From a virus (Duplodnaviria > Heunggongvirae > Uroviricota > Caudoviricetes): a stretch of DNA of 9,199 bases. The position numbers and the translations under genes were made by a program. Of the stretch, positions 1-9,199 are shown one piece after another; positions within the stretch are counted from its first letter, which is position 1, and the number at the start of each line of letters is the position of its first letter. The notes beneath the pieces were generated by a model. It saw only the letters and a program-made list of their open reading frames with translations. It searched no databases and was not told the origin of the DNA. The DNA lies in the IMG/VR virus record IMGVR_UViG_2602041549_000006, positions 1-9,199 of that record; one strand, given 5' to 3'.

Positions 1-107
1 GATTCAGGGGGCCAGTCTAGAACATGATTCGCTTATCCCAGTAGTCATTACACAGGCGATACTCTTCCGTTTTCTCACCTGACTTCATCTGGTCGAAATA
101 TTCACCG

Positions 108-410
108 TTAACTGCCAGTTGAAGGTTGGCCACGACCTTCCTCCTTTGGCTTGTGAATTTGTATCGTCATGCCGCTTTGAGTGGTGACTACAATGACAGA
201 ACCAGGCTGAAGGCTGTTAAGATTGAATGCTTCGTAAAACGAATCCAATGCCAGTGCTTTTTTATTCTTTCGGTTCCACCAACGCCATCCCTTGCTACAG
301 GCTACATCGACAATCCACTGTACACTCCTGTAAGCCATATAAAACCAGATGAGCAAAACCTGAAGGAATGCTATCCAGTCAATAATCGTATATTTCGCGA
401 AGGAGTCCAT
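108..410 (-). CDS. Small hypothetical protein (about 100 aa) with one strongly hydrophobic N-terminal segment (IIDWIAFLQVLLIWFYMAY); probable small membrane protein
   Basis: ORF 108..413 in the track begins with GTG at 413; the ATG at 410-408 is preceded by a strong SD (AGGAGGTGA) and overlaps the upstream stop as TGATG. No recognisable domain. Confidence 0.45.
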   Translation of the reverse strand: MDSFAKYTIIDWIAFLQVLLIWFYMAYRSVQWIVDVACSKGWRWWNRKNKKALALDSFYEAFNLNSLQPGSVIVVTTQSGMTIQIHKPKEEGRGQPSTGS

Positions 411-919
411 CACTTCACCTCCTGCTGCGGTGCTGCTGGCATTTCACGCCAGTGCGTAACTGAGTGCGGATCCGGATATTCGGTGCCATCATCCCAGCGA
501 TTGCCATTCCACATTGCAGACCACATCTCACCGTCTTCATACATGACCATTACCGGAATTAACTTATCCGGCATTCGCTCACTACAGCTTATCCAACCAT
601 CCGGAGTTGCCGGAGAATTGCCATTTACCAAGTCAGCTCGAACATATAGCGTGTCATCATGGTGCTGATTGTGGCTGCACCACGTTAATTCGCTTAACTC
701 GCCATCTTCTGGCCATACTCCAGCCGTTTGCAGCCAGATATGGGCTGGCGCATCTTGGCAAGGTGTATTAACTGGCAACTTGTAAGTTTGGCTTACAGGT
801 TCTGCTCCCAGTGATGCCAGTGCAATCCGTGCCACTTCCATTTGTTCGCCACGGGTAAGCCCGTTATCAAGCGGATTTTTAATGGATAATTCAATACGTT
901 CTTTGGTAATAGTGGTCAT
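410..919 (-). CDS. Phage accessory protein, DUF551-like C-terminal region (169 aa)
   Basis: ATG at 919-917 with AAGGA upstream. The C-terminal stretch GWISCSERMPD...THWREMPAAP resembles the DUF551 pattern common in enterobacterial prophage early-left regions (recalled from memory). Stop overlaps the next start. Confidence 0.55.
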   Translation of the reverse strand: MTTITKERIELSIKNPLDNGLTRGEQMEVARIALASLGAEPVSQTYKLPVNTPCQDAPAHIWLQTAGVWPEDGELSELTWCSHNQHHDDTLYVRADLVNGNSPATPDGWISCSERMPDKLIPVMVMYEDGEMWSAMWNGNRWDDGTEYPDPHSVTHWREMPAAPQQEVK

Positions 920-1431
920 GCCGCGTTTCCTTCTTTCTTATTAACAATTACACCGTCATATATTTCATTAAGGTGCCCTCTCAACTCCATACGCCTTAAT
1001 GCAAATAACATGTAATCGCATTCAACCTGCTTATTTCCAGTAAATGGCTTATCGTCAGGATTACCCCAACAGCAATTACCCTTGGGCCACCCATGTACTT
1101 TCCGTACTCTTCCGTTAACAACGTGAAGTAATCCCCAGCCGGGAGGTAAATCCTCAACTGAAATAATTCCCGGCTCACTAATAAAGAATCGCCAGTCGCC
1201 CATTCCAAGAGATGGATTTTTACGAAAACGCTTTTTTCTATCTGCCAACAAGTCAGCACGAGAACACTTCGCCTCTATCAGGCATGATGCTGAATTTCTG
1301 AATCCCATAGCATCTGGCTGTTCTCCGGTACTGGTTACAGCTATAAAGCGGTCATGAAAACAAACCTTGAACCCATTGCGCTTAAGGAACTTATACGCAA
1401 TCTGACAGAGTTCGCGGTGTGTTAACGCCAT
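916..1431 (-). CDS. Hypothetical protein (171 aa) with a PD-x12-ExK arrangement (PDAMGF ... LIEAK); possible PD-(D/E)XK-fold nuclease
   Basis: Track ORF 916..1767 overlaps the upstream gene; the internal ATG at 1431-1429 has an AAGGAG SD and sits 1 nt after the upstream TGA stop. The motif was read directly from the translation; the fold assignment is inference. Confidence 0.5.
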   Translation of the reverse strand: MALTHRELCQIAYKFLKRNGFKVCFHDRFIAVTSTGEQPDAMGFRNSASCLIEAKCSRADLLADRKKRFRKNPSLGMGDWRFFISEPGIISVEDLPPGWGLLHVVNGRVRKVHGWPKGNCCWGNPDDKPFTGNKQVECDYMLFALRRMELRGHLNEIYDGVIVNKKEGNAA

Positions 1432-1432
1432 A

Positions 1433-2053
1433 TCACTCTCCTTTGATGCGAATGCCAGCTGCGCTTGCTGATTCTTCATATGCGCGTTTAGCAGCGTTAA
1501 GGATTGCTGCCAGTGGCGTATAGCCGCCATCCATTCGGATTGTGTTGTGGATGCCAGCCATTGTGTCGCGCAATTTGCTGTGGCTAGCAGACAGTTCTGC
1601 AATGCGCTTCTCTGCGGCTTCCAGCTTCTCGCGCATATCGTCAACGTACTCGACCAGAGATCCGCCAGCAGGAATTTCGCATTCCTCGACCAGTTGGAAG
1701 TAGATATCAGCTGCGGCCCGTGTGTTGCTATGCCTAGCGTCGCCCATCTCACCTTCACGAAGAGCATCGCGTTCGGCGGTAAGATTGGCTATTTTGCTGT
1801 CTTTGCCTTCCAGCTCAACGCGCAGCCTCCCTACCGTTAGCGCAATATCCTCGTTCTCCTGATCGCGGCTTTTGATGTATTGCAGGTTTCTTTCCCGTTC
1901 ATCCAACAATGCCAGCGCGATATCTGGCGAAAAGTGCTTCATAAAATCGTTAAGCGCATTAATTCGCTGATCGAAAGGCATTACAGGTGCTTCACCAGCA
2001 ATTTTTGTTTTTTCAGCGATTTCACGAAGCTTTTGATAATCAATCTTGCTCAT
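1433..2053 (-). CDS. Ead/Ea22-like phage protein (206 aa) with a coiled-coil segment
   Basis: The N-terminus MSKIDYQKLREIAEK matches the typical start of Ead/Ea22-like prophage proteins (recalled). AAGGAG SD present; ATGA overlap with the upstream gene's stop. Confidence 0.6.
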   Translation of the reverse strand: MSKIDYQKLREIAEKTKIAGEAPVMPFDQRINALNDFMKHFSPDIALALLDERERNLQYIKSRDQENEDIALTVGRLRVELEGKDSKIANLTAERDALREGEMGDARHSNTRAAADIYFQLVEECEIPAGGSLVEYVDDMREKLEAAEKRIAELSASHSKLRDTMAGIHNTIRMDGGYTPLAAILNAAKRAYEESASAAGIRIKGE

Positions 2054-2889
2054 TGGATGACTCCTTTACGAAGCTGTTCGGCGATATCTTCGAGAACGCC
2101 ATCAGAGAATGAACGGTCAAAATCGCCTTCCGGCGCATTAGCCATAAACTCAGTAGAGGTAAGAATCATCCGGGCAATATCCGCGGCGTTCTTCGCAGTA
2201 TCATCAATAAAACCAGCTTCCCAGGCAGCCAGCATTCTGTTCGCCACAAAGTAAGCGCCCTCCTTGCGTGCTTCAGTCTTCACTTCAGCCAGGAAAGCAT
2301 CGGTGGCTGGGGTGTCTGATTGCAGAGACTTTGCGCGATAGTCATTCCACCCTCTTGCATACATGGGATTAACTTGCACTCCATCTTTTACGCAATATGC
2401 CTGCCCTCCACGGTTGATAACCTTGATTTCGTCCATAGCGCCAGACTTCATCCCCGCATTCTCCGCTGCCAGCTCCGCGCACTTGGCCTCAAGAGCGGCA
2501 ACCACTTCCTGATGGTCTTTGTACTTAACGTATGAGCCGGAGATGTCATCACCTTCGGTGTTTAGCCATGCGTCATTGCAATTCACTGCGTAGGTTCTGA
2601 TGCTCTCCCGCCTATGACAGACGCCAGGCCAGTCAATAAAGTATCCGCATTCCTTCTCAGATTGCTTAAGCGATGTATTTTCAGCAGCCATCTTCGCGCA
2701 TTTAGCCTCAAGGTTATCAATCGTGATTCCAGCAGAACGACACTCCCGCAACGCCGTTTCCAGTTTTGATTCAAGTTCACCGAACTTACGGACAAGATAT
2801 TCAGCGTTTGTTTCGTTAACCTTTAAATCACTTGGGATGCATTTACCTTTCAGAAAACCATCCATCTCAATTAGTGACATTTGTTTCAT
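2050..2889 (-). CDS. Coiled-coil phage protein with an internal tandem duplication (Ea22-like region); start ambiguous
   Basis: Long minus-strand ORF. The track start at 2907 is GTG with no SD; the ATG at 2889 has GGAG upstream, so either could be real. The motif LEAKCAxxAAEN occurs twice in the protein and is visible as a DNA repeat (2476-2495 versus 2697-2715). Confidence 0.5.
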   Translation of the reverse strand: MKQMSLIEMDGFLKGKCIPSDLKVNETNAEYLVRKFGELESKLETALRECRSAGITIDNLEAKCAKMAAENTSLKQSEKECGYFIDWPGVCHRRESIRTYAVNCNDAWLNTEGDDISGSYVKYKDHQEVVAALEAKCAELAAENAGMKSGAMDEIKVINRGGQAYCVKDGVQVNPMYARGWNDYRAKSLQSDTPATDAFLAEVKTEARKEGAYFVANRMLAAWEAGFIDDTAKNAADIARMILTSTEFMANAPEGDFDRSFSDGVLEDIAEQLRKGVIQ

Positions 2890-2983
2890 TTCTTCCCACT
2901 CCGCCACATCGCATTCAGATATTTGTTGTCATTAACAGAACCGAAACTCTTTCTCTTAAGCAAGTCCTCTCATGGTAAATTCC

Positions 2984-3277
2984 TCAGTCATTACTGATAG
3001 CGCCATAACGTGAGCGGTAATTACGCAGGCGCGGGTCAATTTCAGGGAAGTGGGTATATGTGGCTTTGCGGAATGGTCGGATTGATGTCTGGTAAATTCG
3101 CTCGCGTTCTTCTTTCTCTGCAAGCCATATACAATGGCGAAATTCCTTTTCCTCTTTCGTTTCCTGCGGTATCGACATTATCAGGTTGTAGTTTTTCCTG
3201 AATTTATCCAGCACCTCCGATACGGAATTGCCGGAACATCGGCGCGCGTCATCCGCACCATACAGAGGCGCTGGCAT
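2984..3277 (-). CDS. Hypothetical small phage protein (97 aa)
   Basis: ATG at 3277-3275 preceded by an AGGAG SD; same orientation and tight spacing with neighbouring genes. No recognisable domain. Confidence 0.5.
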   Translation of the reverse strand: MPAPLYGADDARRCSGNSVSEVLDKFRKNYNLIMSIPQETKEEKEFRHCIWLAEKEERERIYQTSIRPFRKATYTHFPEIDPRLRNYRSRYGAISND

Positions 3278-3293
3278 GGTTTTCTCCTGTTGA

Positions 3294-3842
3294 TTATTTA
3301 GCTAACTTTTTCCAGATCGCTGAAACGTATTTGGCTTGGTGAATGGCATCATCAAGCGCGTTGTGGCGAGTTCCTTTGAATGGCATATCTCGCTTAGGGT
3401 CGAATCCTATTACCTTCCCAAGTTCGACGATTGTTCTTACGTCGCGGTCATTCCACCACTGCCACGGAACTGGCTGCCCTGTCAGCGAATAACTGTTTCG
3501 GAGAATAACGCAGTCAAATGATGCTCCATTCCCCCAAACCTGAACGAATTTGTGGTTAGCGTTCTTTATGATGAATTCAGATAACCATGAAAGAGCCGTT
3601 GAAAGCTCCTGAGTGTTGCTGGTTAGCGATTTTCTGGCTTCTTCACTCTGTTCCAGCCACCATAAAATCGTTGAAGCGTCAGGACGCGCTCGATATCGCA
3701 TTGATGACTCAAGCGAGATATTTACCGAGAACTCTTCTCCTGTTTCTCCGGTATTCGGGTCAAAGAATACCGCCCCAATAGAAATAACTGGCGCGTATGG
3801 CCCGTTGCCCATTGTTTCAAGGTCAACCATCAAGTGATTCAT
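3294..3842 (-). CDS. 3'-5' exonuclease, DEDD(h)/DnaQ-like fold (182 aa)
   Basis: N-terminal MVDLETMG (Exo I motif, D-x-E) and C-terminal HNALDDA (Exo III motif, H-x4-D) read from the translation. AAGGA SD upstream of the ATG at 3842. Confidence 0.7.
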   Translation of the reverse strand: MNHLMVDLETMGNGPYAPVISIGAVFFDPNTGETGEEFSVNISLESSMRYRARPDASTILWWLEQSEEARKSLTSNTQELSTALSWLSEFIIKNANHKFVQVWGNGASFDCVILRNSYSLTGQPVPWQWWNDRDVRTIVELGKVIGFDPKRDMPFKGTRHNALDDAIHQAKYVSAIWKKLAK

Positions 3843-3850
3843 GTAAGTCC

Positions 3851-4330
3851 TTAAATTGCGTGAATAGCGTGACGAGGGAAGGGGAGAGTTACTGGCTCCT
3901 CGTCTGGGTAGATAGGTTTGTTATGTTTGTGCCACTCGACATGACATGACTTGCAGAGCCACATCACATCGGTTGGTTTGCTGTAGTCGCAGTGGTGCGC
4001 CTGTGGTTTACATTCTGATCCGCAGCACTCACATTGTGGTGGTCGGATTAGCTTACCGTCGCGCAAAAAATTACCCACAATGATGTGGGCTTTTCTTTTC
4101 CATGGGTTGCTCTGAATGAACCGCTTTTTGGCTGCGTTACACCGTTCTCTTCCGCGTTCCGATGATTGATATTCTCTCCTTGCTGATACTCGATGTGGCA
4201 ATCCAGCGCGTTCTTTGTCGTATTCAGCCAGGCAAGCCCGGCAAGCGGCAGTTAATCCATCTCTGGATGCTCTTCTGATTTGAAAGTCCCTTTCTTCCTT
4301 ATGTTGATGGCATCTTGAGCAGATTTTCAT
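3851..4330 (-). CDS. HNH endonuclease (159 aa), zinc-binding, free-standing
   Basis: C-terminal QCECCG ... AHHCDYSKP ... WLCKSCHVEWH gives the HNH catalytic His pair plus Cys4-type metal ligands; additional CxxC pairs at the N-terminus. AGGAG SD upstream. Confidence 0.7.
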   Translation of the reverse strand: MKICSRCHQHKEERDFQIRRASRDGLTAACRACLAEYDKERAGLPHRVSARREYQSSERGRERCNAAKKRFIQSNPWKRKAHIIVGNFLRDGKLIRPPQCECCGSECKPQAHHCDYSKPTDVMWLCKSCHVEWHKHNKPIYPDEEPVTLPFPRHAIHAI

Positions 4331-4339
4331 ATTCAGCTC

Positions 4340-4813
4340 CTAGAACGGAATATCCGAATCGTCGAAGTTCATAGGTGGTTCGCTGTGATTCCCATGCTGC
4401 TGAGATTGCTGTCTTTGTTGCTGGCCGTTATTTCGCTGAGGTGAAGACTGTTCATTGCCTCCTTGCTTGCCACCAAGCATTTGCATGGTTCCACCAACGC
4501 CTACGATAACTTCGGTAGTGAACCGATCCTGTCCACTTTGATCCTGCCATTTTCTTGTCCGCAATTTGCCTTCAAGATAAACCTCTGAGCCTTTCCGCAG
4601 ATACTCGCTGGCAATTTCTGCCAGTTTCCCGCTCATTACCACACGGTGCCACTCCGTCTGCTCCTTTTGCTCTCCAGTTTGCTTATCACGCCATTGTTCT
4701 GACGTAGCAACTGTAAGGTTTGCAAATGCCGTTCCTGATGGTGAATATCTGATTTCTGGATCATGCCCAAGGCGACCAATAATGATCACCTTATTTACGC
4801 CTCTGCTTGCCAT
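4340..4813 (-). CDS. ssb: Single-stranded DNA-binding protein SSB (157 aa)
   Basis: OB-fold N-terminus ([17 protein letters not shown]...), Gly/Gln-rich linker and the canonical acidic tail DDSDIPF. Confidence 0.9.
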
Positions 4814-5521
4814 TTATGCCGCCTGTTTTAGCTCGTTAACTCTGATGTTCATTACCTGAACGCATTTAGCCTGCGCATCCTCATTGCCAGCCATTAATTG
4901 CCAGTCACGCTGATAACGCTCTATGAGTTTTTTCTTGTCAGTTTCTGTTGATGCATAATCGCTGAAGTCTTTCAGGATTTGTTCGCAGTCAACCGATGGA
5001 GATTTCTGGTTGGTATTTTCTGGTGATGGTTTGTTATCTGATGCTGGGATTGCCCATCCCGGCAGCGATGGAGGGAGCCAGTAAAATCCTGTTCCATCCT
5101 TCAGTTTTGCCCTGTGCCACCCCTGCTTTTTATCGAGAGATGTTTGTGCGAAACCTTCCTCAAGGTTATACAGATACCGACCGATTCCCCATTGAACGGC
5201 AGCACGCTTCATTGCACCGGAACGACCACCTTTGACGGCTTCTACCTGCGTGTTTTCAGCAGCATCCCATTTGGTTACCCATTCGGAATCAATCTTGATT
5301 GATATGCCGCATTCAACTCCGCCGTTGTTGGGAATATCGCGGTATTCATTGCGCCATCCTGCTTTGCCGCAAACATCGTCCAGGCGTTTCATGATTGCCC
5401 GGTTCGTGACATAAGCCAGCACCATAGCCCACACCTTGCCATCGCGTGTTTTACCGCTTTGCTGTATTCGCCATTCGATATCTTCAGGGCTGAATGGCTC
5501 ATCGAATTTGTTCAAATCCAT
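4814..5521 (-). CDS. Single-strand annealing recombinase, Rad52/Sak-like family (235 aa); functional analogue of lambda Bet / P22 Erf
   Basis: Motifs GWRNEY, GGVECGISI and AVQWGIGRYLY fit Rad52-family annealing proteins (recalled). Sits immediately upstream of ssb, with a GAGGTGA SD. Confidence 0.65.
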   Translation of the reverse strand: MDLNKFDEPFSPEDIEWRIQQSGKTRDGKVWAMVLAYVTNRAIMKRLDDVCGKAGWRNEYRDIPNNGGVECGISIKIDSEWVTKWDAAENTQVEAVKGGRSGAMKRAAVQWGIGRYLYNLEEGFAQTSLDKKQGWHRAKLKDGTGFYWLPPSLPGWAIPASDNKPSPENTNQKSPSVDCEQILKDFSDYASTETDKKKLIERYQRDWQLMAGNEDAQAKCVQVMNIRVNELKQAA

Positions 5522-5620
5522 AATTCACCTCAGAATGGACACGGCCCAAGAAAATAACGCTGATTTAATACTTCGACTCGGGACAAATTAAGGCATACCC
5601 GCATTCCTTCGCGGTCACCA

Positions 5621-5779
5621 TTATGGCGATACCAGAGAGCTTTCTGCGTGTACATGCGTCTCTGTAACTTGCTCTCCTTCACTGTGGTTGCAAGTGACAT
5701 GAATATCTCCTTCGTTACCGATTAATTCTTTCATCTGACGAATGAATTCTTCGTCTGACCATTTATCTGTAAAACTCAT
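5621..5779 (-). CDS. Small protein (52 aa) in the kil position, downstream of and translationally coupled to cIII; function unknown
   Basis: ATG at 5779-5777 overlaps the cIII stop as ATGA. Assignment is by position only; the longer track ORF 5621..5809 would overlap cIII by 34 nt. Confidence 0.35.
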   Translation of the reverse strand: MSFTDKWSDEEFIRQMKELIGNEGDIHVTCNHSEGEQVTETHVHAESSLVSP

Positions 5780-5946
5780 GGACGGCCTTGTTGTTTCAAA
5801 ATATCCCAAAGCTTTTCGAGCAAACTTTTCATTCTTGGTTGTTTAAAGTCTGCTCCGGTTAAAATGTTTTTTCGTGAATGCTGTACCGATAAAATCGGGT
5901 TGAAAGGGCGAACCGATGCCGCCCCTGCAATAGCGAACTGTTGCAT
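5776..5946 (-). CDS. cIII: CIII-like protein (56 aa); regulator that protects CII from FtsH
   Basis: Internal ATG at 5946-5944 with an AAGGAG SD. The protein MQQFAIAGAAS...LLEKLWDILKQQGRP resembles lambda CIII (MQYAIAGW...LIDILNQPGVP) in start, length and C-terminus. The longer track ORF would read through the terminator hairpin. Confidence 0.65.
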   Translation of the reverse strand: MQQFAIAGAASVRPFNPILSVQHSRKNILTGADFKQPRMKSLLEKLWDILKQQGRP

Positions 5947-6011
5947 AGGATGCTCCTTCTGTTTGATTGCATAACGAAAACGCCTCGAGTGAAGCGTTAT
6001 TGGTATGCATA

Positions 6012-6036
6012 TAAAAAAGCCCTCACACTGGAGGGC
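6012..6036 (-). terminator. Intrinsic terminator on the minus strand (tL1-like), downstream of the N plus orf156 unit
   Basis: The minus strand reads GCCCTC-cagtgt-GAGGGC followed by TTTTTTAT: a 6-bp GC stem, 6-nt loop and T6 tract. There is no T-tract on the plus-strand side. Confidence 0.6.
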
Positions 6037-6098
6037 AAAGAAGATTTCCAATAATCAGAACAAGTCGGCTCCTGTTTAGTTACGAGCGACATTGCTCC

Positions 6099-6126
6099 GT
6101 GTATTCACTCGTTGGAATGAATACAC
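6099..6126. repeat. Perfect 9-bp inverted repeat (GTGTATTCA-N10-TGAATACAC) just 3' of orf156
   Basis: Read directly from the sequence; no adjacent U-tract, so not a classical terminator. Confidence 0.5.
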
Positions 6127-6140
6127 AGTGCTTATTCGTA

Positions 6141-6611
6141 CTAATAAAACACCCAGTTTTCTGTTTCTTGGTTGTGTCCAAAGTTATATTCAATACCTGG
6201 TGTTGATGTATCAATATTCTTCATCCCATCAACAAGAGTTGATACAACAGCCAAATCTTGTTTGATTCTCATCAAATGGTATTTCTTCCGGCGCAATAAA
6301 CTTTCAATGGCAAGTTTCTTCGTCGGGAATGCAAAAGATCTTTCTGCATTTTTTGCTACTTTCTTAATTGCATATCTATTTCTCCTTTGTTTCCATTCCT
6401 GTAACCACTGATTTGGTGCTGGTTTAAAATTAACAATCCAATGCGCAGGAACCAACCATGCATAATGCTCTGTCTGATGAAAAGCTATATATTGAAGTGC
6501 GAATATTTTGATTCCATCTTCTTCAACTGTCGCTTGGAATCTCCAGAAAACAGGCATTCCATCATGTTCAGTTTCTGATTCAGGAAAAGGTACGCTCCAT
6601 GATTTTGTCAT
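6141..6611 (-). CDS. Hypothetical protein (156 aa), AT-rich moron in the ral/sieB position directly after N; function unknown
   Basis: ATG at 6611-6609 with SD GAGGTGA overlapping the N stop codon. The segment is visibly AT-rich compared with its flanks. No recognisable domain, no transmembrane segment. Confidence 0.6.
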   Translation of the reverse strand: MTKSWSVPFPESETEHDGMPVFWRFQATVEEDGIKIFALQYIAFHQTEHYAWLVPAHWIVNFKPAPNQWLQEWKQRRNRYAIKKVAKNAERSFAFPTKKLAIESLLRRKKYHLMRIKQDLAVVSTLVDGMKNIDTSTPGIEYNFGHNQETENWVFY

Positions 6612-6619
6612 ATATCACC

Positions 6620-6955
6620 TCAAATAAGTGGTTTGCTGCCTAATTTCATTTTCTGGCGACCAACACAAGTCACACCCATTTCACTGCGTGGCTTGCGGTA
6701 GTAAATACGATTCTGTTTACTCTCGACTTCATCTGCCTTCTTGCAGCGAAGGATTCCGAGTGATATTGCTTTTTCAGAAAGGCTTAAACGCTTTCTTGGG
6801 GCTTCCTGAACAGGTTCCTCACTGTCTGTGCCGAAGATAGAATCAATGATGTTGCAGATGGCATCACGCTCGATAGCCAGCTTTCTGCGCCGCTCATGAC
6901 GGCGAGTTTTGGCATTTCCTGCAAATGTTGATTTCCCGTACACGATTACCGTCAT
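6620..6955 (-). CDS. N: Antitermination protein N (112 aa) with a P22-type arginine-rich motif and a lambda-like C-terminus
   Basis: The N-terminus MTVIVYGKSTFAGNAKTRRHERRRKLAIER matches the P22 N ARM peptide (recalled); the C-terminus YYRKPRSEMGVTCVGRQKMKLGSKPLI parallels the lambda N C-terminus (WYSKPGERGITCSGRQKIKGKSIPLI). ATG at 6955 with AGGA upstream; the track ORF extends to 7039. Confidence 0.85.
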   Translation of the reverse strand: MTVIVYGKSTFAGNAKTRRHERRRKLAIERDAICNIIDSIFGTDSEEPVQEAPRKRLSLSEKAISLGILRCKKADEVESKQNRIYYRKPRSEMGVTCVGRQKMKLGSKPLI

Positions 6956-7074
6956 GATGTTTTCCTCATGTGAAATGGCTTTGGTGGTGATGCGCCAGAT
7001 GCTGATCTTCTGGTTGCTGTCGTTGCAGCTGCAATTCACATCACCGCCAAATCCATCTCGTTTGGTATCTGTTT

Positions 7075-7109
7075 GCGCTTTGTCAGCGCCCCATCGAAGT
7101 TAAAGAGCA
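7075..7109 (-). promoter_or_regulatory. nutL: boxA (TGCTCTTTA) and boxB hairpin (GCGCTGACAAAGCGC)
   Basis: On the minus strand: boxA-like TGCTCTTTA, a 12-nt spacer, then a 4-bp GCGC stem closing a loop that contains GACAA. This matches my recollection of P22 nutL boxB. It lies between the predicted PL and N. Confidence 0.7.
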
Positions 7110-7154
7110 TGCCAATCTGTTCCGTTTGGCTTCCAGCTTCCTGCTGATGGCTAA

Positions 7155-7183
7155 ATAGTACGATGTGTACTTTATTGAGTCAA
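7155..7183 (-). promoter_or_regulatory. PL candidate: -35 TTGACT (7178-7183), 17-bp spacer, -10 TACTAT (7155-7160), overlapped by operator-like palindromes
   Basis: Hexamers read on the minus strand. The 13-bp perfect palindrome TATTGAGTCAATA (7173-7185) overlaps the -35 and AGTAC-N5-GTACT (7157-7171) overlaps the -10/spacer. Confidence 0.5.
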
Positions 7184-7242
7184 TACAAAATGTTCTAAAT
7201 ATAATTAGTTTTTTATAACGCTTTGTATTTAATAGGTTTATA

Positions 7243-7278
7243 TTTTGGAAAAAGAAAACCCGACGCTAAGGTCGGGTT
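7243..7278 (-). terminator. Intrinsic terminator downstream of cI (weaker on the plus strand)
   Basis: 8-bp stem AACCCGAC/GTCGGGTT with a 6-nt loop; on the minus strand it is followed by TTCTTTTTCC, on the plus strand by ATTGTTGTGTATTTT. Confidence 0.6.
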
Positions 7279-7308
7279 ATTGTTGTGTATTTTAGAGTTG
7301 TGAGGCTG

Positions 7309-7968
7309 TTAACTAAATGTCTCTTCAGGCCACTGGCTGGCGATAACTTTCCCTACTACGGAACAGCTATCATTGCATGGAATCATTGGATATTGCGGGT
7401 TTAGTGGCTGTAGGAACACCTGACCGCTATCCCTGATCAGTTTCTTGAAGGTAAACTCATCACCTCCAAGTCTGGCTATGCAAAAATCACCGGGCTCAAT
7501 AGCCTGCTCAGGGTCAACAAGAATTAACATCCCGTCAGGAAAGCTTGGCTTGGATCCTGTTGGCGCGGTCATGGAATTACCTTCAACCTCAAGCCAGAAT
7601 GCAGAATCACTGGCTTTTTTGGTTGTGCTTACCCATCTCTCCGCATCACCTTTGGTAAAGGTTCTAAGCTCAGGCGAGAACATCCCGGCCTGAACATGAG
7701 AAAAAACAGGGTACTCATATTGTTTTTTAACGGGGGCAGATGAGTATTCGCCAACAGGTGAAAATGTACCGTCGTGGTTGAATGAGACGTTATCAATACC
7801 AAGGTATTTAAACACCACACCAATCTCGTCAAGAGATGGATGACGAGATCCGCGCAACCAGTGACCAATTCCACCCTGCGTCATACCAAGCTCTTCAGCT
7901 AACTTCTCTTGAGTTATGCCGAGTTCTTTCATTCTGGATCTAGCCAGTTCATACCATTTCATTTTCAT
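7309..7968 (-). CDS. cI: CI-type prophage repressor (219 aa): non-lambda N-terminal HTH domain fused to a lambda-cI-like LexA/S24 C-terminal domain
   Basis: The C-terminal about 130 aa ([19 protein letters not shown] ... [12 protein letters not shown]) is near-identical to lambda cI as I recall it, including the Ala-Gly cleavage site and the Ser and Lys of the catalytic dyad; the N-terminal about 85 aa is different. ATG at 7968-7966 with an AAGGA SD; the track ORF extends to 8043. Confidence 0.9.
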
Positions 7969-8024
7969 ATCCTTATTATTACGCTCTGTACTAAAACCAT
8001 CCATGCACAAGATGTATTTTTTGT

Positions 8025-8053
8025 TTGCATTCCAAAAGTACATATCGTATTAT
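8025..8053 (+). promoter_or_regulatory. PR candidate: -35 TTGCAT (8025-8030), 17 bp, -10 TATTAT (8048-8053), inside the OR region 7969-8079
   Basis: Best sigma70-like match on the plus strand upstream of cro; SD GGAGGG at 8071-8076. Operator half-sites could not be defined confidently; AGTACATATCGTATT (8036-8050) and ATTACGCTCTGTACT (7979-7993) resemble the OL element. Confidence 0.4.
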
Positions 8054-8079
8054 TGTTTCATGATTACTATGGAGGGCAT

Positions 8080-8295
8080 ATGAGCAACCTACGAAAATAT
8101 CGAGAGTCACTGAATATCTCTCAAACAACACTTGCTAAGGCGGTTGGATGCACACAGGGAGCTATCGGACATTGGGAATCTGGTCGTCGCTTCCCAGACC
8201 TTAAAACATGCCGTGCTCTTGTTGCGTGCCTAAACAAGTTAGGCGCAAAAGTCAGTCTTGATGACGTGTTCCCACCGGAACACAAAGCCGCTTAA
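8080..8295 (+). CDS. cro: Cro-like HTH repressor (71 aa)
   Basis: Divergent from cI across a 111-bp operator region; ATG at 8080 with a GGAGGG SD; HTH segment QTTLAKAVGCTQGAIGHWESG. The track ORF 7909..8295 is an upstream extension without an SD. Confidence 0.8.
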   Translation: MSNLRKYRESLNISQTTLAKAVGCTQGAIGHWESGRRFPDLKTCRALVACLNKLGAKVSLDDVFPPEHKAA

Positions 8296-8305
8296 TAAGC
8301 GGATC

Positions 8306-8340
8306 CGCTCTTTATCAATCTGCACCGCCGACAACGCGGT
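8306..8340 (+). promoter_or_regulatory. nutR: boxA (CGCTCTTTA, 8306-8314) and boxB hairpin (ACCGC-cGACAAc-GCGGT, 8324-8340)
   Basis: Consensus boxA followed 9 nt later by a 5-bp stem whose loop contains GACAA, the same loop core as the nutL boxB, as expected for a P22-type N. Confidence 0.7.
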
Positions 8341-8352
8341 AACTAATTAAGC

Positions 8353-8385
8353 ACTCATCGAAAGATGAGTATTAGTGATTATTTA
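8353..8385 (+). terminator. tR1-position hairpin (ACTCATC-GAAA-GATGAGT) followed by a weakly T-rich tract
   Basis: 7-bp stem with a GAAA tetraloop between nutR and cII; the downstream tract ATTAGTGATTATTTA is only moderately U-rich, so this may be a weak or N-suppressible terminator. Confidence 0.35.
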
Positions 8386-8394
8386 CCTATGGAA

Positions 8395-8437
8395 ATAGTA
8401 AGAAATGGAACAAACAAGTTACAGCAAACTATCACAG
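8395..8437 (-). promoter_or_regulatory. PRE-like CII-dependent promoter: TTGC-N6-TTGT box (8424-8437) and -10 TACTAT (8395-8400)
   Basis: On the minus strand TTGCtgtaacTTGT lies at codons 7-11 of cII, analogous to the lambda TTGC-N6-TTGC site in early cII codons; a 17-bp spacer then TACTAT. Confidence 0.4.
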
Positions 8438-8701
8438 CGCGATGTTGATCGCGCAGAAACAGATTTACTTATCAACCTGTCAACGCTTACACAGCGCGGT
8501 CTGGCAAAGATGATTGGCTGTCATGAATCGAAGATAAGCAGAACGGACTGGAGATTTATTGCTTCGGTCTTGTGTGCTTTCGGAATGGCATCAGACATCA
8601 GTCCGATTAGCAGGGCTTTTAAGTATGCGCTTGATGGACTCACCAATAAAAAACGCCCGGCGGCAACCGAGCGTTCTTATCAAATACAAATGGAATTTTA
8701 A
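8405..8701 (+). CDS. cII: CII transcriptional activator (98 aa)
   Basis: The C-terminus LTNKKRPAATERSYQIQMEF is nearly identical to lambda CII (ILTNKKRPAATERSEQIQMEF, recalled); length and position after cro and nutR fit. Confidence 0.9.
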   Translation: MEQTSYSKLSQRDVDRAETDLLINLSTLTQRGLAKMIGCHESKISRTDWRFIASVLCAFGMASDISPISRAFKYALDGLTNKKRPAATERSYQIQMEF

Positions 8702-8712
8702 CAACATCCAGC
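8646..8712 (-). ncRNA. OOP-like antisense RNA overlapping the 3' end of cII (terminator 8645-8673, putative -10 TATAAT at 8719-8724)
   Basis: On the minus strand: stem CGCUCGG/CCGGGCG (one G-U pair), loop UUGCCG, then UUUUUUAUU; matches my recollection of the lambda oop terminator. A TATAAT hexamer lies about 70 nt upstream on the minus strand. The 5' end is inferred. Confidence 0.5.
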
Positions 8713-8723
8713 GAGGTAATTAT

Positions 8724-8867
8724 ATGCGAAAAACGCAGGAAAATAAACGCGTTAATCACCGAAAAGATGTGCTACGTGACCAGTTTTATCAGGGGGTTAA
8801 TCCAGCAATAGCTGTGCCACTGAGAGAAATACTTAACAGGTACAAAACTTCGGAGAAGTCAAAATGA
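8724..8867 (+). CDS. Small hypothetical basic protein (47 aa) between cII and the replication gene
   Basis: ATG at 8724 with a GAGGT SD; stop overlaps the next start as ATGA. The track ORF 8559..8867 extends upstream into cII in another frame. Confidence 0.4.
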   Translation: MRKTQENKRVNHRKDVLRDQFYQGVNPAIAVPLREILNRYKTSEKSK

Positions 8868-9199
8868 GCATGAATCTTATGGCTAAGGCCATGAATATAA
8901 AGGTTGGCAACCCACTGAGAAAACTGGTTCTGATTAAACTTGCCGATAACGCCAATGATAATGGCGAATGCTGGCCTTCATATCAACATGTCGCTGACCA
9001 GTGTGAGGTGAGCAGATCGACAGTAAAAAGTCACATTAGGGCACTGGAAGAGATGGGGCTTTTGAAAAGGGAATTCAGAAGAAAAGGAGAGCTTAACCAG
9101 TCAAACGTTTTTTATCTGACGCTGGATAATGCACAACAAATCCAACCAGAATCAGGTGGGGCAGGAGCTGCCCGGGGTGGGGCAGGAGCTGCCCGGGGT
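8864..9199 (+). CDS. Replication initiator, O-like, with N-terminal winged-HTH (5' partial, runs off the window end)
   Basis: Open frame from the ATG at 8864 to the window end (112 codons, no stop). The translation MSMNLMAKAMNIKVGNPLRKLVLIKLADNANDNGECWPSYQHVADQCEVSRSTVKSHIRALEEMGLLKR is HTH-like and the gene is in the O position; iteron-like repeats lie inside it. Confidence 0.65.
   Translation, partial: MSMNLMAKAMNIKVGNPLRKLVLIKLADNANDNGECWPSYQHVADQCEVSRSTVKSHIRALEEMGLLKREFRRKGELNQSNVFYLTLDNAQQIQPESGGAGAARGGAGAARG
9155..9199 (+). repeat. Iteron-like direct repeats (putative ori): 21-bp unit GGTGGGGCAGGAGCTGCCCGG, two exact copies plus the start of a third at the window edge
   Basis: Exact tandem copies at 9155-9175 and 9176-9196; each unit contains the dyad GGGCAG-gag-CTGCCC. 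In frame they encode a Gly/Ala-rich linker (GGAGAARG repeated). Confidence 0.6.

Follow-up and report, generated by a model that had tools for sequence, protein, structure and literature searches.

The MmcB-like proteins (PF06319, formerly DUF1052, COG5321; founder Caulobacter crescentus MmcB) are single-domain proteins of about 150–170 residues, encoded on chromosomes, mostly of Alphaproteobacteria, and SOS-regulated in Caulobacter (PMC3424549, PMC9578287). A prediction published in 2005 cast COG5321/DUF1052 as an active PD-(D/E)XK nuclease with kinship to the archaeal Holliday-junction resolvases (PMC1189080), and a superfamily survey of 2012 lists the structure 3dnx for PF06319 (PMC3424549). 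The Caulobacter MmcB was described as an SOS-regulated PD-(D/E)XK endonuclease giving resistance to mitomycin C and cisplatin; its suggested targets are interstrand cross-links, on which it would work together with translesion polymerases (PMC9578287). Here we analysed a stretch of 9,199 nucleotides of a tailed-phage record (IMG/VR record IMGVR_UViG_2602041549_000006, positions 1–9,199; the window), a 9.2-kb immunity and early-left region of a lambdoid, P22- and Shiga toxin (Stx)-phage-like E. coli phage, in which the minus-strand gene at 916–1431 (the target) encodes a protein of the same size class and likewise of a single domain, with 171 residues. An earlier note, made from the letters of this DNA, had pointed to a possible PD-(D/E)XK nuclease motif in it. 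We conclude with high confidence that the target has the PD-(D/E)XK fold and is homologous to the MmcB-like proteins, and, with the balance of evidence somewhat in its favour, we read it as a small stand-alone metal-dependent PD-(D/E)XK DNA endonuclease for phage replication, recombination or repair intermediates.

The motif was found as described, PDAMGF occupying residues 39–44 and IEAK residues 52–55, with exactly 12 residues separating D40 and E53. Taken alone it is not significant, PD-x(8-25)-[DE]-x-K being present in 5.8% of 20,000 shuffles of the target protein and the looser D-x(8-25)-[DE]-x-K in 60% of them. It is credible as a nuclease motif because it is conserved in distant relatives, a point that had been set beforehand as a test: among 58 aligned relatives with 33–55% identity to the target, D40 was kept in all 58, E53, K55 and E37 in 57 each and P39 in 56, and position 27 was acidic in 56. 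Outside these columns, D60, G78 and R81 were each kept in 58 of 58, D64, K67 and R70 in 57, H5 in 56 and S57 in 53; position 137 was acidic throughout (E in 56, D in 2), and R146 and R147 were kept in 56 and 52 relatives, respectively. A chance motif in a protein that is no nuclease fold at all would fit the shuffle frequency of the bare motif and the lack of a curated family model matching the target; the conservation in the 58 distant relatives, together with the profile and Foldseek results given below, effectively refutes this explanation, which we consider extremely improbable.

An AlphaFold2 model of the target was built with a 28-sequence alignment and reached a mean predicted local distance difference test score (pLDDT) of 80.3 and a predicted template modelling score (pTM) of 0.77. 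Its elements run as helix 5–18 (alpha1), strands 23–26 (beta1), 41–45 (beta2) and 48–54 (beta3), helices 58–65 (alpha2) and 68–71, strand 80–85 (beta4), a beta hairpin at 100–113, a lower-confidence loop and two final helices, and so show the alpha-beta-beta-beta-alpha-beta order of the PD-(D/E)XK core. D40 opens strand 2, E53 lies within strand 3 and K55 directly follows it. Structure prediction thus returned a restriction-endonuclease-like fold, as expected from the motif, and in a Foldseek search against the PDB 3dnx was the sole match at E ≤ 1e-3 (E 5.3e-6; TM score 0.58/0.66). Against the viral models of BFVD, several of the matches were proteins named in UniProt as 'MmcB family DNA repair protein'. 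Other structural matches with the same fold included the restriction enzymes SdaI and NgoMIV and the CRISPR-associated effector nucleases Can2 and Card1. The features of the target are as follows.

916–1431, minus strand: the target gene, 171-residue nuclease-like protein (this analysis)
1438–1443, minus strand: Shine-Dalgarno sequence AAGGAG, read from the sequence, six bases upstream of the ATG at 1429–1431
1093–1431, minus strand: conserved nuclease core, residues 1–113 (block mean pLDDT 77–94 over residues 1–110)
1351–1353, minus strand: codon of D27, the fifth conserved acidic residue
1267–1323, minus strand: predicted active-site segment E37, P39-D40, E53 and K55 (conservation and profile alignment)
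1321–1323, minus strand: codon of E37
1315–1317, minus strand: codon of P39
1312–1314, minus strand: codon of D40
1273–1275, minus strand: codon of E53
1267–1269, minus strand: codon of K55
1033–1092, minus strand: variable loop, residues 114–133, with C120-C121 (from pLDDT and conservation)
955–1032, minus strand: C-terminal helices, residues 134–159, with conserved E137, R146 and R147 (model helices 134–151 and 154–159)

A Cys-rich C-terminus had been put forward as a further feature, and this did not hold up. The stretches CCWGNPDD and VECD do lie at residues 120–127 and 136–139 as quoted; Cys was present at position 120 in three and at position 121 in four of the 58 relatives, many of which are gapped around this pair, and at position 138 it is outside the six commonest residues of the distant relatives, being conserved only in close enterobacterial ones. 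The segment is also low in pLDDT (block mean 63–67 over residues 111–130). A zinc-binding role, for which four conserved Cys/His ligands were looked for, was rejected because the cysteines are not conserved; what carries the cysteines is a loop peculiar to the lineage and no conserved metal site.

The earlier note had been unable to place the protein in a named family, and here the analysis went further, namely that the target belongs to a phage clade without a Pfam model of its own that is homologous to the MmcB-like PF06319. Strong PHROGs matches were obtained to phrog_9263 and phrog_631, both families of unknown function, and a weak one to phrog_5429, 'DNA repair protein' (E 0.0026), which gave the first lead to MmcB. 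A phmmer search of the PDB with the single target sequence returned chance-level matches only (a lectin, a flavin reductase). The phage-clade profile, in turn, matched by sequence 3dnx (E 4.9e-5), which is SPO1766 of Ruegeria pomeroyi, the solved structure of PF06319; a search with the 3dnx sequence gave the PF06319-bearing proteins, and hhalign of the phage clade against 20 of these yielded a probability of 98% (E 2.8e-13, 105 columns, target residues 1–117). The features shared in that alignment are D...ECKxSRxDFxxDxK, an R-[FY]-[FY] strand and LPxxxGL. The target itself reads D40...E53-A54-K55-C56-S57-R58-A59-D60-L61, the family consensus being PD...IECKxSRxDF, and so carries the D...E-(V/I/C)-K signature of COG5321 in the form E-A-K.

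Single sequences gave graded matches to the two nearest Pfam models. With the MmcB-like model, 16 of the 58 relatives scanned singly matched at E ≤ 1 (best E 2.9e-4), a homologue from a Taipeivirus reached 12.3 bits (E 0.14), and the target had no match even at E ≤ 10, the gathering threshold being 22 bits. With the Hjc model (PF01870; gathering threshold 21.1 bits), 35 of the 58 matched at E ≤ 1 (best E 1.3e-4), the two relatives displayed reached 16.9 and 17.7 bits, and the target again had no match. The phage-clade profile matched archaeal Hjc weakly (E about 0.2), across I-P-D...I-E-x-K-S-R, and aligned D40, E53 and K55 with both the PD...ExK of Sulfolobus solfataricus Hjc and the D...ECK of 3dnx. 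We therefore read the phage clade as a probable sister group of PF06319 beyond the current Pfam model, a homologue rather than a member by the Pfam criterion; it is more distantly related to the archaeal Holliday-junction resolvases.

Compared with the MmcB-like proteins, the phage clade has the same D...E-C-K-x-S-R-x-D-F-x-x-D-x-K pattern, R-[FY]-[FY] and L-P-x-x-x-G-L strands and an acidic residue where strand 1 ends. It differs in having P-D where they have V-D, in an insertion between K67 and G76, and in the near-invariant H5, E37, G76-x-G78, W99 and E137, which are absent from the MmcB-like proteins; its carriers, too, are phages and prophages, with early phage transcription in the case of the window. 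Hjc/Hje (PF01870; 1hh1, 1ob8, 2wcw) and the AHJR-like nucleases (PF18743) are, like the target, minimal PD-(D/E)XK nucleases of similar size, and the I-P-D-I-I...I-E-M-K-S-R-K-D of Hjc aligns with the PD...ExK-S-R of the phage clade. This similarity is limited to about 45 residues around the motif and stays, where bit scores were displayed, under the Pfam cut-off, and the C-terminal half, with its beta hairpin and long helices, is unlike Hjc.

Judged by residue conservation, the target is quite likely an active nuclease. If the chemistry of the superfamily applies, Mg2+ would be bound by D40, where strand 2 begins, and by E53 in strand 3, and K55 would position the attacking water; the metal site probably also includes E37 and the acidic residue at position 27, located where strand 1 ends. 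Contacts to the DNA backbone are probably made by R81 and by the S57-R58-x-D60-F61-x-x-D64-x-x-K67-x-x-R70 helices. Recognition of a DNA structure, rather than a sequence, is expected, because a separate sequence-reading domain is missing and damaged or branched DNA is what the nearest relatives act on; the candidates are branches, forks, flaps or lesions. A substrate of RNA, or of some phosphodiester other than DNA, would be in keeping with PD-(D/E)XK structural matches that cut RNA too (Can2/Card1-type effectors, viral cap-snatching endonucleases) and with the exonuclease encoded nearby, which is of the Rv2179c-like 3'-5' exoribonuclease family. We hold it to be very unlikely, as the nearest relatives by every measure, the MmcB-like proteins and Hjc, are DNA enzymes (PMC9578287) and the gene context is one of DNA replication and recombination.

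That context is a tightly packed leftward operon in which stops overlap starts and the recombination genes lie upstream of the target, which itself is situated in what the lambda literature terms the exo-xis region of the leftward early operon. The other genes annotated in the window are the following.

7309–8043, minus strand: LexA/cI-type repressor (annotation of matching records)
about 6620–6955, minus strand: P22-type N antiterminator (arginine-rich stretch, our own reading)
4814–5521, minus strand: Rad52/Erf-type annealing protein (PF04098)
4340–4813, minus strand: single-stranded DNA-binding protein, SSB (PF00436)
3851–4330, minus strand: Cys/His-rich protein of 159 residues (named 'endonuclease' in a related phage)
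3294–3842, minus strand: DEDD exonuclease (PF16473)
2984–3277, minus strand: anti-RecBCD protein Abc2 (PF11043)
2050–2907, minus strand: protein of 285 residues with weak coiled-coil-type matches only (bZIP_1, RIMB1_N)
1433–2053, minus strand: Ead/Ea22-like coiled-coil protein of 206 residues, the upstream neighbour of the target (PF13935, E 8e-19)
410–919, minus strand: DUF551 protein of 169 residues, the downstream neighbour of the target (PF04448, E 3.8e-18)
108–413, minus strand: DUF4752 protein (PF15944)

The boundaries given for the target in the earlier note proved right. The minus-strand translation of 916–1431 is the 171-residue protein and a stop, TGA at 916–918, and the start is the ATG at 1429–1431, preceded by its Shine-Dalgarno sequence and shared, as the same Met, by 171-residue homologues, one 90%-identity cluster of which holds 1,363 member sequences. 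A longer frame, 916–1767, was rejected, since it overlaps the Ea22-like gene, which is read in a different frame, and since the homologues start at the Met at 1431. The TGA stop of the Ea22-like gene (1433–1435) is located between the Shine-Dalgarno sequence and the ATG of the target, which indicates translational coupling, and the stop of the target overlaps the ATG of the DUF551 gene (917–919) as ATGA; the target is translationally coupled on both sides. Its transcription is expected to come with that of the early-left operon, behind the recombination genes, no promoter-like site having been found on its strand in window positions 1–3400. With no such site for the target itself, its expression in the lysogen is improbable, and so is a part in prophage defence; a defence gene expressed in the lysogen was accordingly rejected, on the grounds of this result, the overlapping stops and starts and the lack of a PADLOC match.

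The coupling to the Ea22-like gene, and the fusion of an Ea22 N-terminal module to the nuclease domain in Salmonella prophages (P0093, P0104), could also speak for an exo-xis protein with a regulatory or DNA-binding function in the lysis-lysogeny decision, as reported for Ea22, orf60a, orf61 and orf63, with the fold serving mainly as a binding scaffold. According to published work, genes of this region alter both lysogenization and induction (PMC3824215, PMC7093339, PMC10834534). In one relative, P0150, the positions of E53 and K55 are taken by H and V (RVHVVLS) and the K67/R70 region is lacking too; by its sequence this may be a catalytically dead family member. Against a regulatory reading, 57–58 of the 58 distant relatives retain the D, E and K of the catalytic site, which speaks for catalysis, and strictly lytic phages that carry homologues have no lysogeny decision to make; a regulatory protein thus seems a decidedly unlikely explanation.

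More fusions were found around the same modules. On one E. coli contig (P0009) a deletion has joined precisely the two genes seen in the window, the Ea22-like one and the nuclease; nuclease-DUF551 fusions occur in other phages (P0221, with DUF551 at E 8e-4, just below the Pfam cut-off, and P0019, with PF04448); and the same Ea22-nuclease-DUF551 arrangement of three genes is present on a P1-like phage-plasmid (L007). This suggests either a joint function of the Ea22 N-terminus, nuclease and DUF551 modules or their free exchange as 'portable domains', a term proposed for the C-terminal domains of Ea22 (PMC10834534). Scanning the long homologues for fusions also returned a TniB-like ATPase, a dATP/dGTP pyrophosphohydrolase and DUF551, each once or twice, and the partners are suggestive of module shuffling rather than of a pathway.

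In lytic phages of unrelated groups (Ackermannviridae and Mardecavirus) the homologues, with 43–47% identity to the target over core residues 1–113, were found near replication genes. In Salmonella phage dinky, a Kuttervirus, the stop of the homologue overlaps the start of the DNA primase gene (L089:3980-5661); in Klebsiella phage phi1_175010, a Taipeivirus, the homologue is one small gene upstream of the primase (L002:2980-4935); and in Vibrio phage vB_VpS_C2, a Mardecavirus, it comes after the genes for polymerase I and two helicases and before that for the primase (L004:4863-6607). When the closest open reading frames on the same strand, on either side of the gene, were scanned against Pfam at 53 IMG/VR loci, DUF551 was counted at four, Ea22 and C5 methylase at three each, and SNF2, NinG and NinB at two each. 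As no single partner was conserved across the 53 loci, the target protein appears to act alone.

These neighbours bear on an offensive or competitive nuclease that would degrade the host chromosome, plasmids or the DNA of rival phages, for superinfection exclusion or nucleotide scavenging; the earlier note had likewise considered an anti-host beside a recombination factor. The fold is shared with the restriction enzymes and CRISPR-associated effectors named above, the accessory exo-xis location is one where genes are freely swapped, and C5 methylases, SNF2 helicases and dATP/dGTP pyrophosphohydrolases are neighbours elsewhere. Relatives are spread across the Ackermannviridae, a family that uses modified thymidines and could tolerate a nuclease against unmodified DNA. 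However, temperate lambdoid carriers with unmodified DNA would be exposed to their own enzyme, no conserved immunity or inhibitor partner adjoins the gene among the 53 loci, and the target has neither a PADLOC match nor a sequence-recognition domain. Its probable silence in the lysogen and the fact that the closest characterised relative is a repair enzyme point the same way. An offensive role is thus unlikely, and the context weakly favours DNA metabolism over host attack.

For the DNA endonuclease that we favour, early expression from the leftward operon would follow right after the Rad52/Erf-type annealase, SSB, the DEDD exonuclease and Abc2, and phage DNA replication, recombination or repair intermediates are what it would most likely help to process. 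This role we put forward tentatively, with somewhat less than even confidence. If branch removal is right, T7 endonuclease I, lambda Rap/NinG, RusA and T4 endonuclease VII do the same job. T7 endonuclease I also uses the PD-(D/E)XK fold; no specific sequence or structure match to any of these four was found in our searches. NinG is a separate gene beside homologues in two viral loci, meaning that the two co-exist there and are not obvious alternatives.

Several points weigh against the proposed enzyme and its role. The target sequence itself matches no Pfam, NCBIfam or PADLOC model, and no conserved partner in the neighbour census pins down a pathway. Lambdoid nin regions usually carry other junction-resolving enzymes, with NinG a neighbour in the two loci, so that a resolvase role of the target would be redundant. 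The helix-1 Glu of Hjc is not strictly conserved in the phage clade, in which position 7 is acidic in 42 of the 58 relatives and H5 is near-invariant instead. The active-site geometry was judged from the positions of secondary-structure elements in a model that is a monomer, and literature searches on the exo-xis region, DUF551, MmcB-like proteins and PF06319 turned up no paper on the gene and no biochemical or genetic data for any member of the phage clade.

We place the phage clade, so far without annotation, as a new subfamily within a familiar class of enzymes. Assigning it to the MmcB-like/resolvase-like branch of PD-(D/E)XK nucleases yields a usable annotation for a very common prophage gene and suggests that Pfam or PHROG (phrog_631, phrog_9263) might take up a label for it. 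The assignment also locates a probable enzyme in the exo-xis region of Stx phages, which is poorly understood and through its genes affects prophage induction and, in consequence, the release of toxin. The view of phage biology is unchanged by this, small PD-(D/E)XK nucleases being expected in the DNA-metabolism modules of phages. A bolder possibility, and one that we think improbable, is that the clade is a distinct, hitherto unrecognised replication-associated class of structure-specific nuclease, tied to the primase in lytic phages and to the Ea22 and DUF551 modules in lambdoid ones. It would perform a step that the known phage resolvases leave uncovered, for example the cutting of stalled or cross-linked forks for recombination-dependent replication restart, and the Ea22-nuclease and nuclease-DUF551 fusions would then be the first biochemical handle on the exo-xis region that affects the induction of Shiga-toxin prophages.

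The gene family is widespread. A word-indexed search retrieved 322 homologues at E ≤ 1e-3, and an exhaustive profile search 3,234 clusters (50% identity) at the same cut-off, 2,415 of them at E ≤ 1e-10. By tblastn, homologues were located in 642 phage records. Apart from lambdoid phages, those with Stx among them, the records include phages of Vibrio, Klebsiella, Salmonella, Dickeya and Serratia, of which many are lytic Ackermannviridae; the relatives in that family comprise Kuttervirus, Taipeivirus, Vapseptimavirus and Dickeya and Serratia phages. Of 5,426 complete E. coli genomes, 910 carry the gene at ≥95% identity, intact and decayed copies counted alike. It sits on chromosomes or, at 250 places, on plasmids, and its carriers include Shiga-toxin prophages and P1-like phage-plasmids. 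One of the latter, pCREC6306-2 (L007:5396-6516), has a nuclease gene whose annotation records a frameshift and a DUF551 gene recorded as a fragment, so that at least some of the E. coli copies are decaying pseudogenes.

The exact protein is NCBI ESS94836.1, a 'hypothetical protein', and in the records and cluster members inspected the names are 'hypothetical' or 'uncharacterised', the exceptions among homologues being 'DNA repair protein', 'adenylosuccinate synthase' and 'structural protein'. The last two are misleading names given to homologues of the Vibrio phages Cla (L090:3986-4678) and CAU_VPP01 (L005:4929-5717). The 'structural protein' carries the note 'spo1766 structure', and apparently a structure-prediction match to 3dnx was recorded there as a product name.

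Megablast of the window matched 634 phage records partially at 90–99% identity, mostly Escherichia, Stx-converting and Salmonella phages, none of them spanning more than 46% of the window, a coverage in line with the usual lambdoid mosaic. Two sizeable early-left open reading frames on the minus strand, 2050–2907 (285 residues) and 6141–6611 (156 residues), had no above-threshold Pfam family. The open reading frame at 6620–7039 (minus strand) contains GNAKTRRHERRRKLAIERD, which we take to resemble the arginine-rich RNA-binding motif of a P22-type N antiterminator, and its true start is probably an internal Met (MTVIVYGK...) rather than the listed GTG. The Cys/His-rich protein of 159 residues (3851–4330), encoded between SSB and the DEDD exonuclease, has several CxxC pairs and a QAHHCDYSKPTDVMWLCKSCHVEWH stretch and no Pfam match at E ≤ 0.01; the position-matched gene in the record of a close phage, Bas106, is named 'endonuclease', and the protein looks like an HNH-type nuclease missed by the Pfam models.

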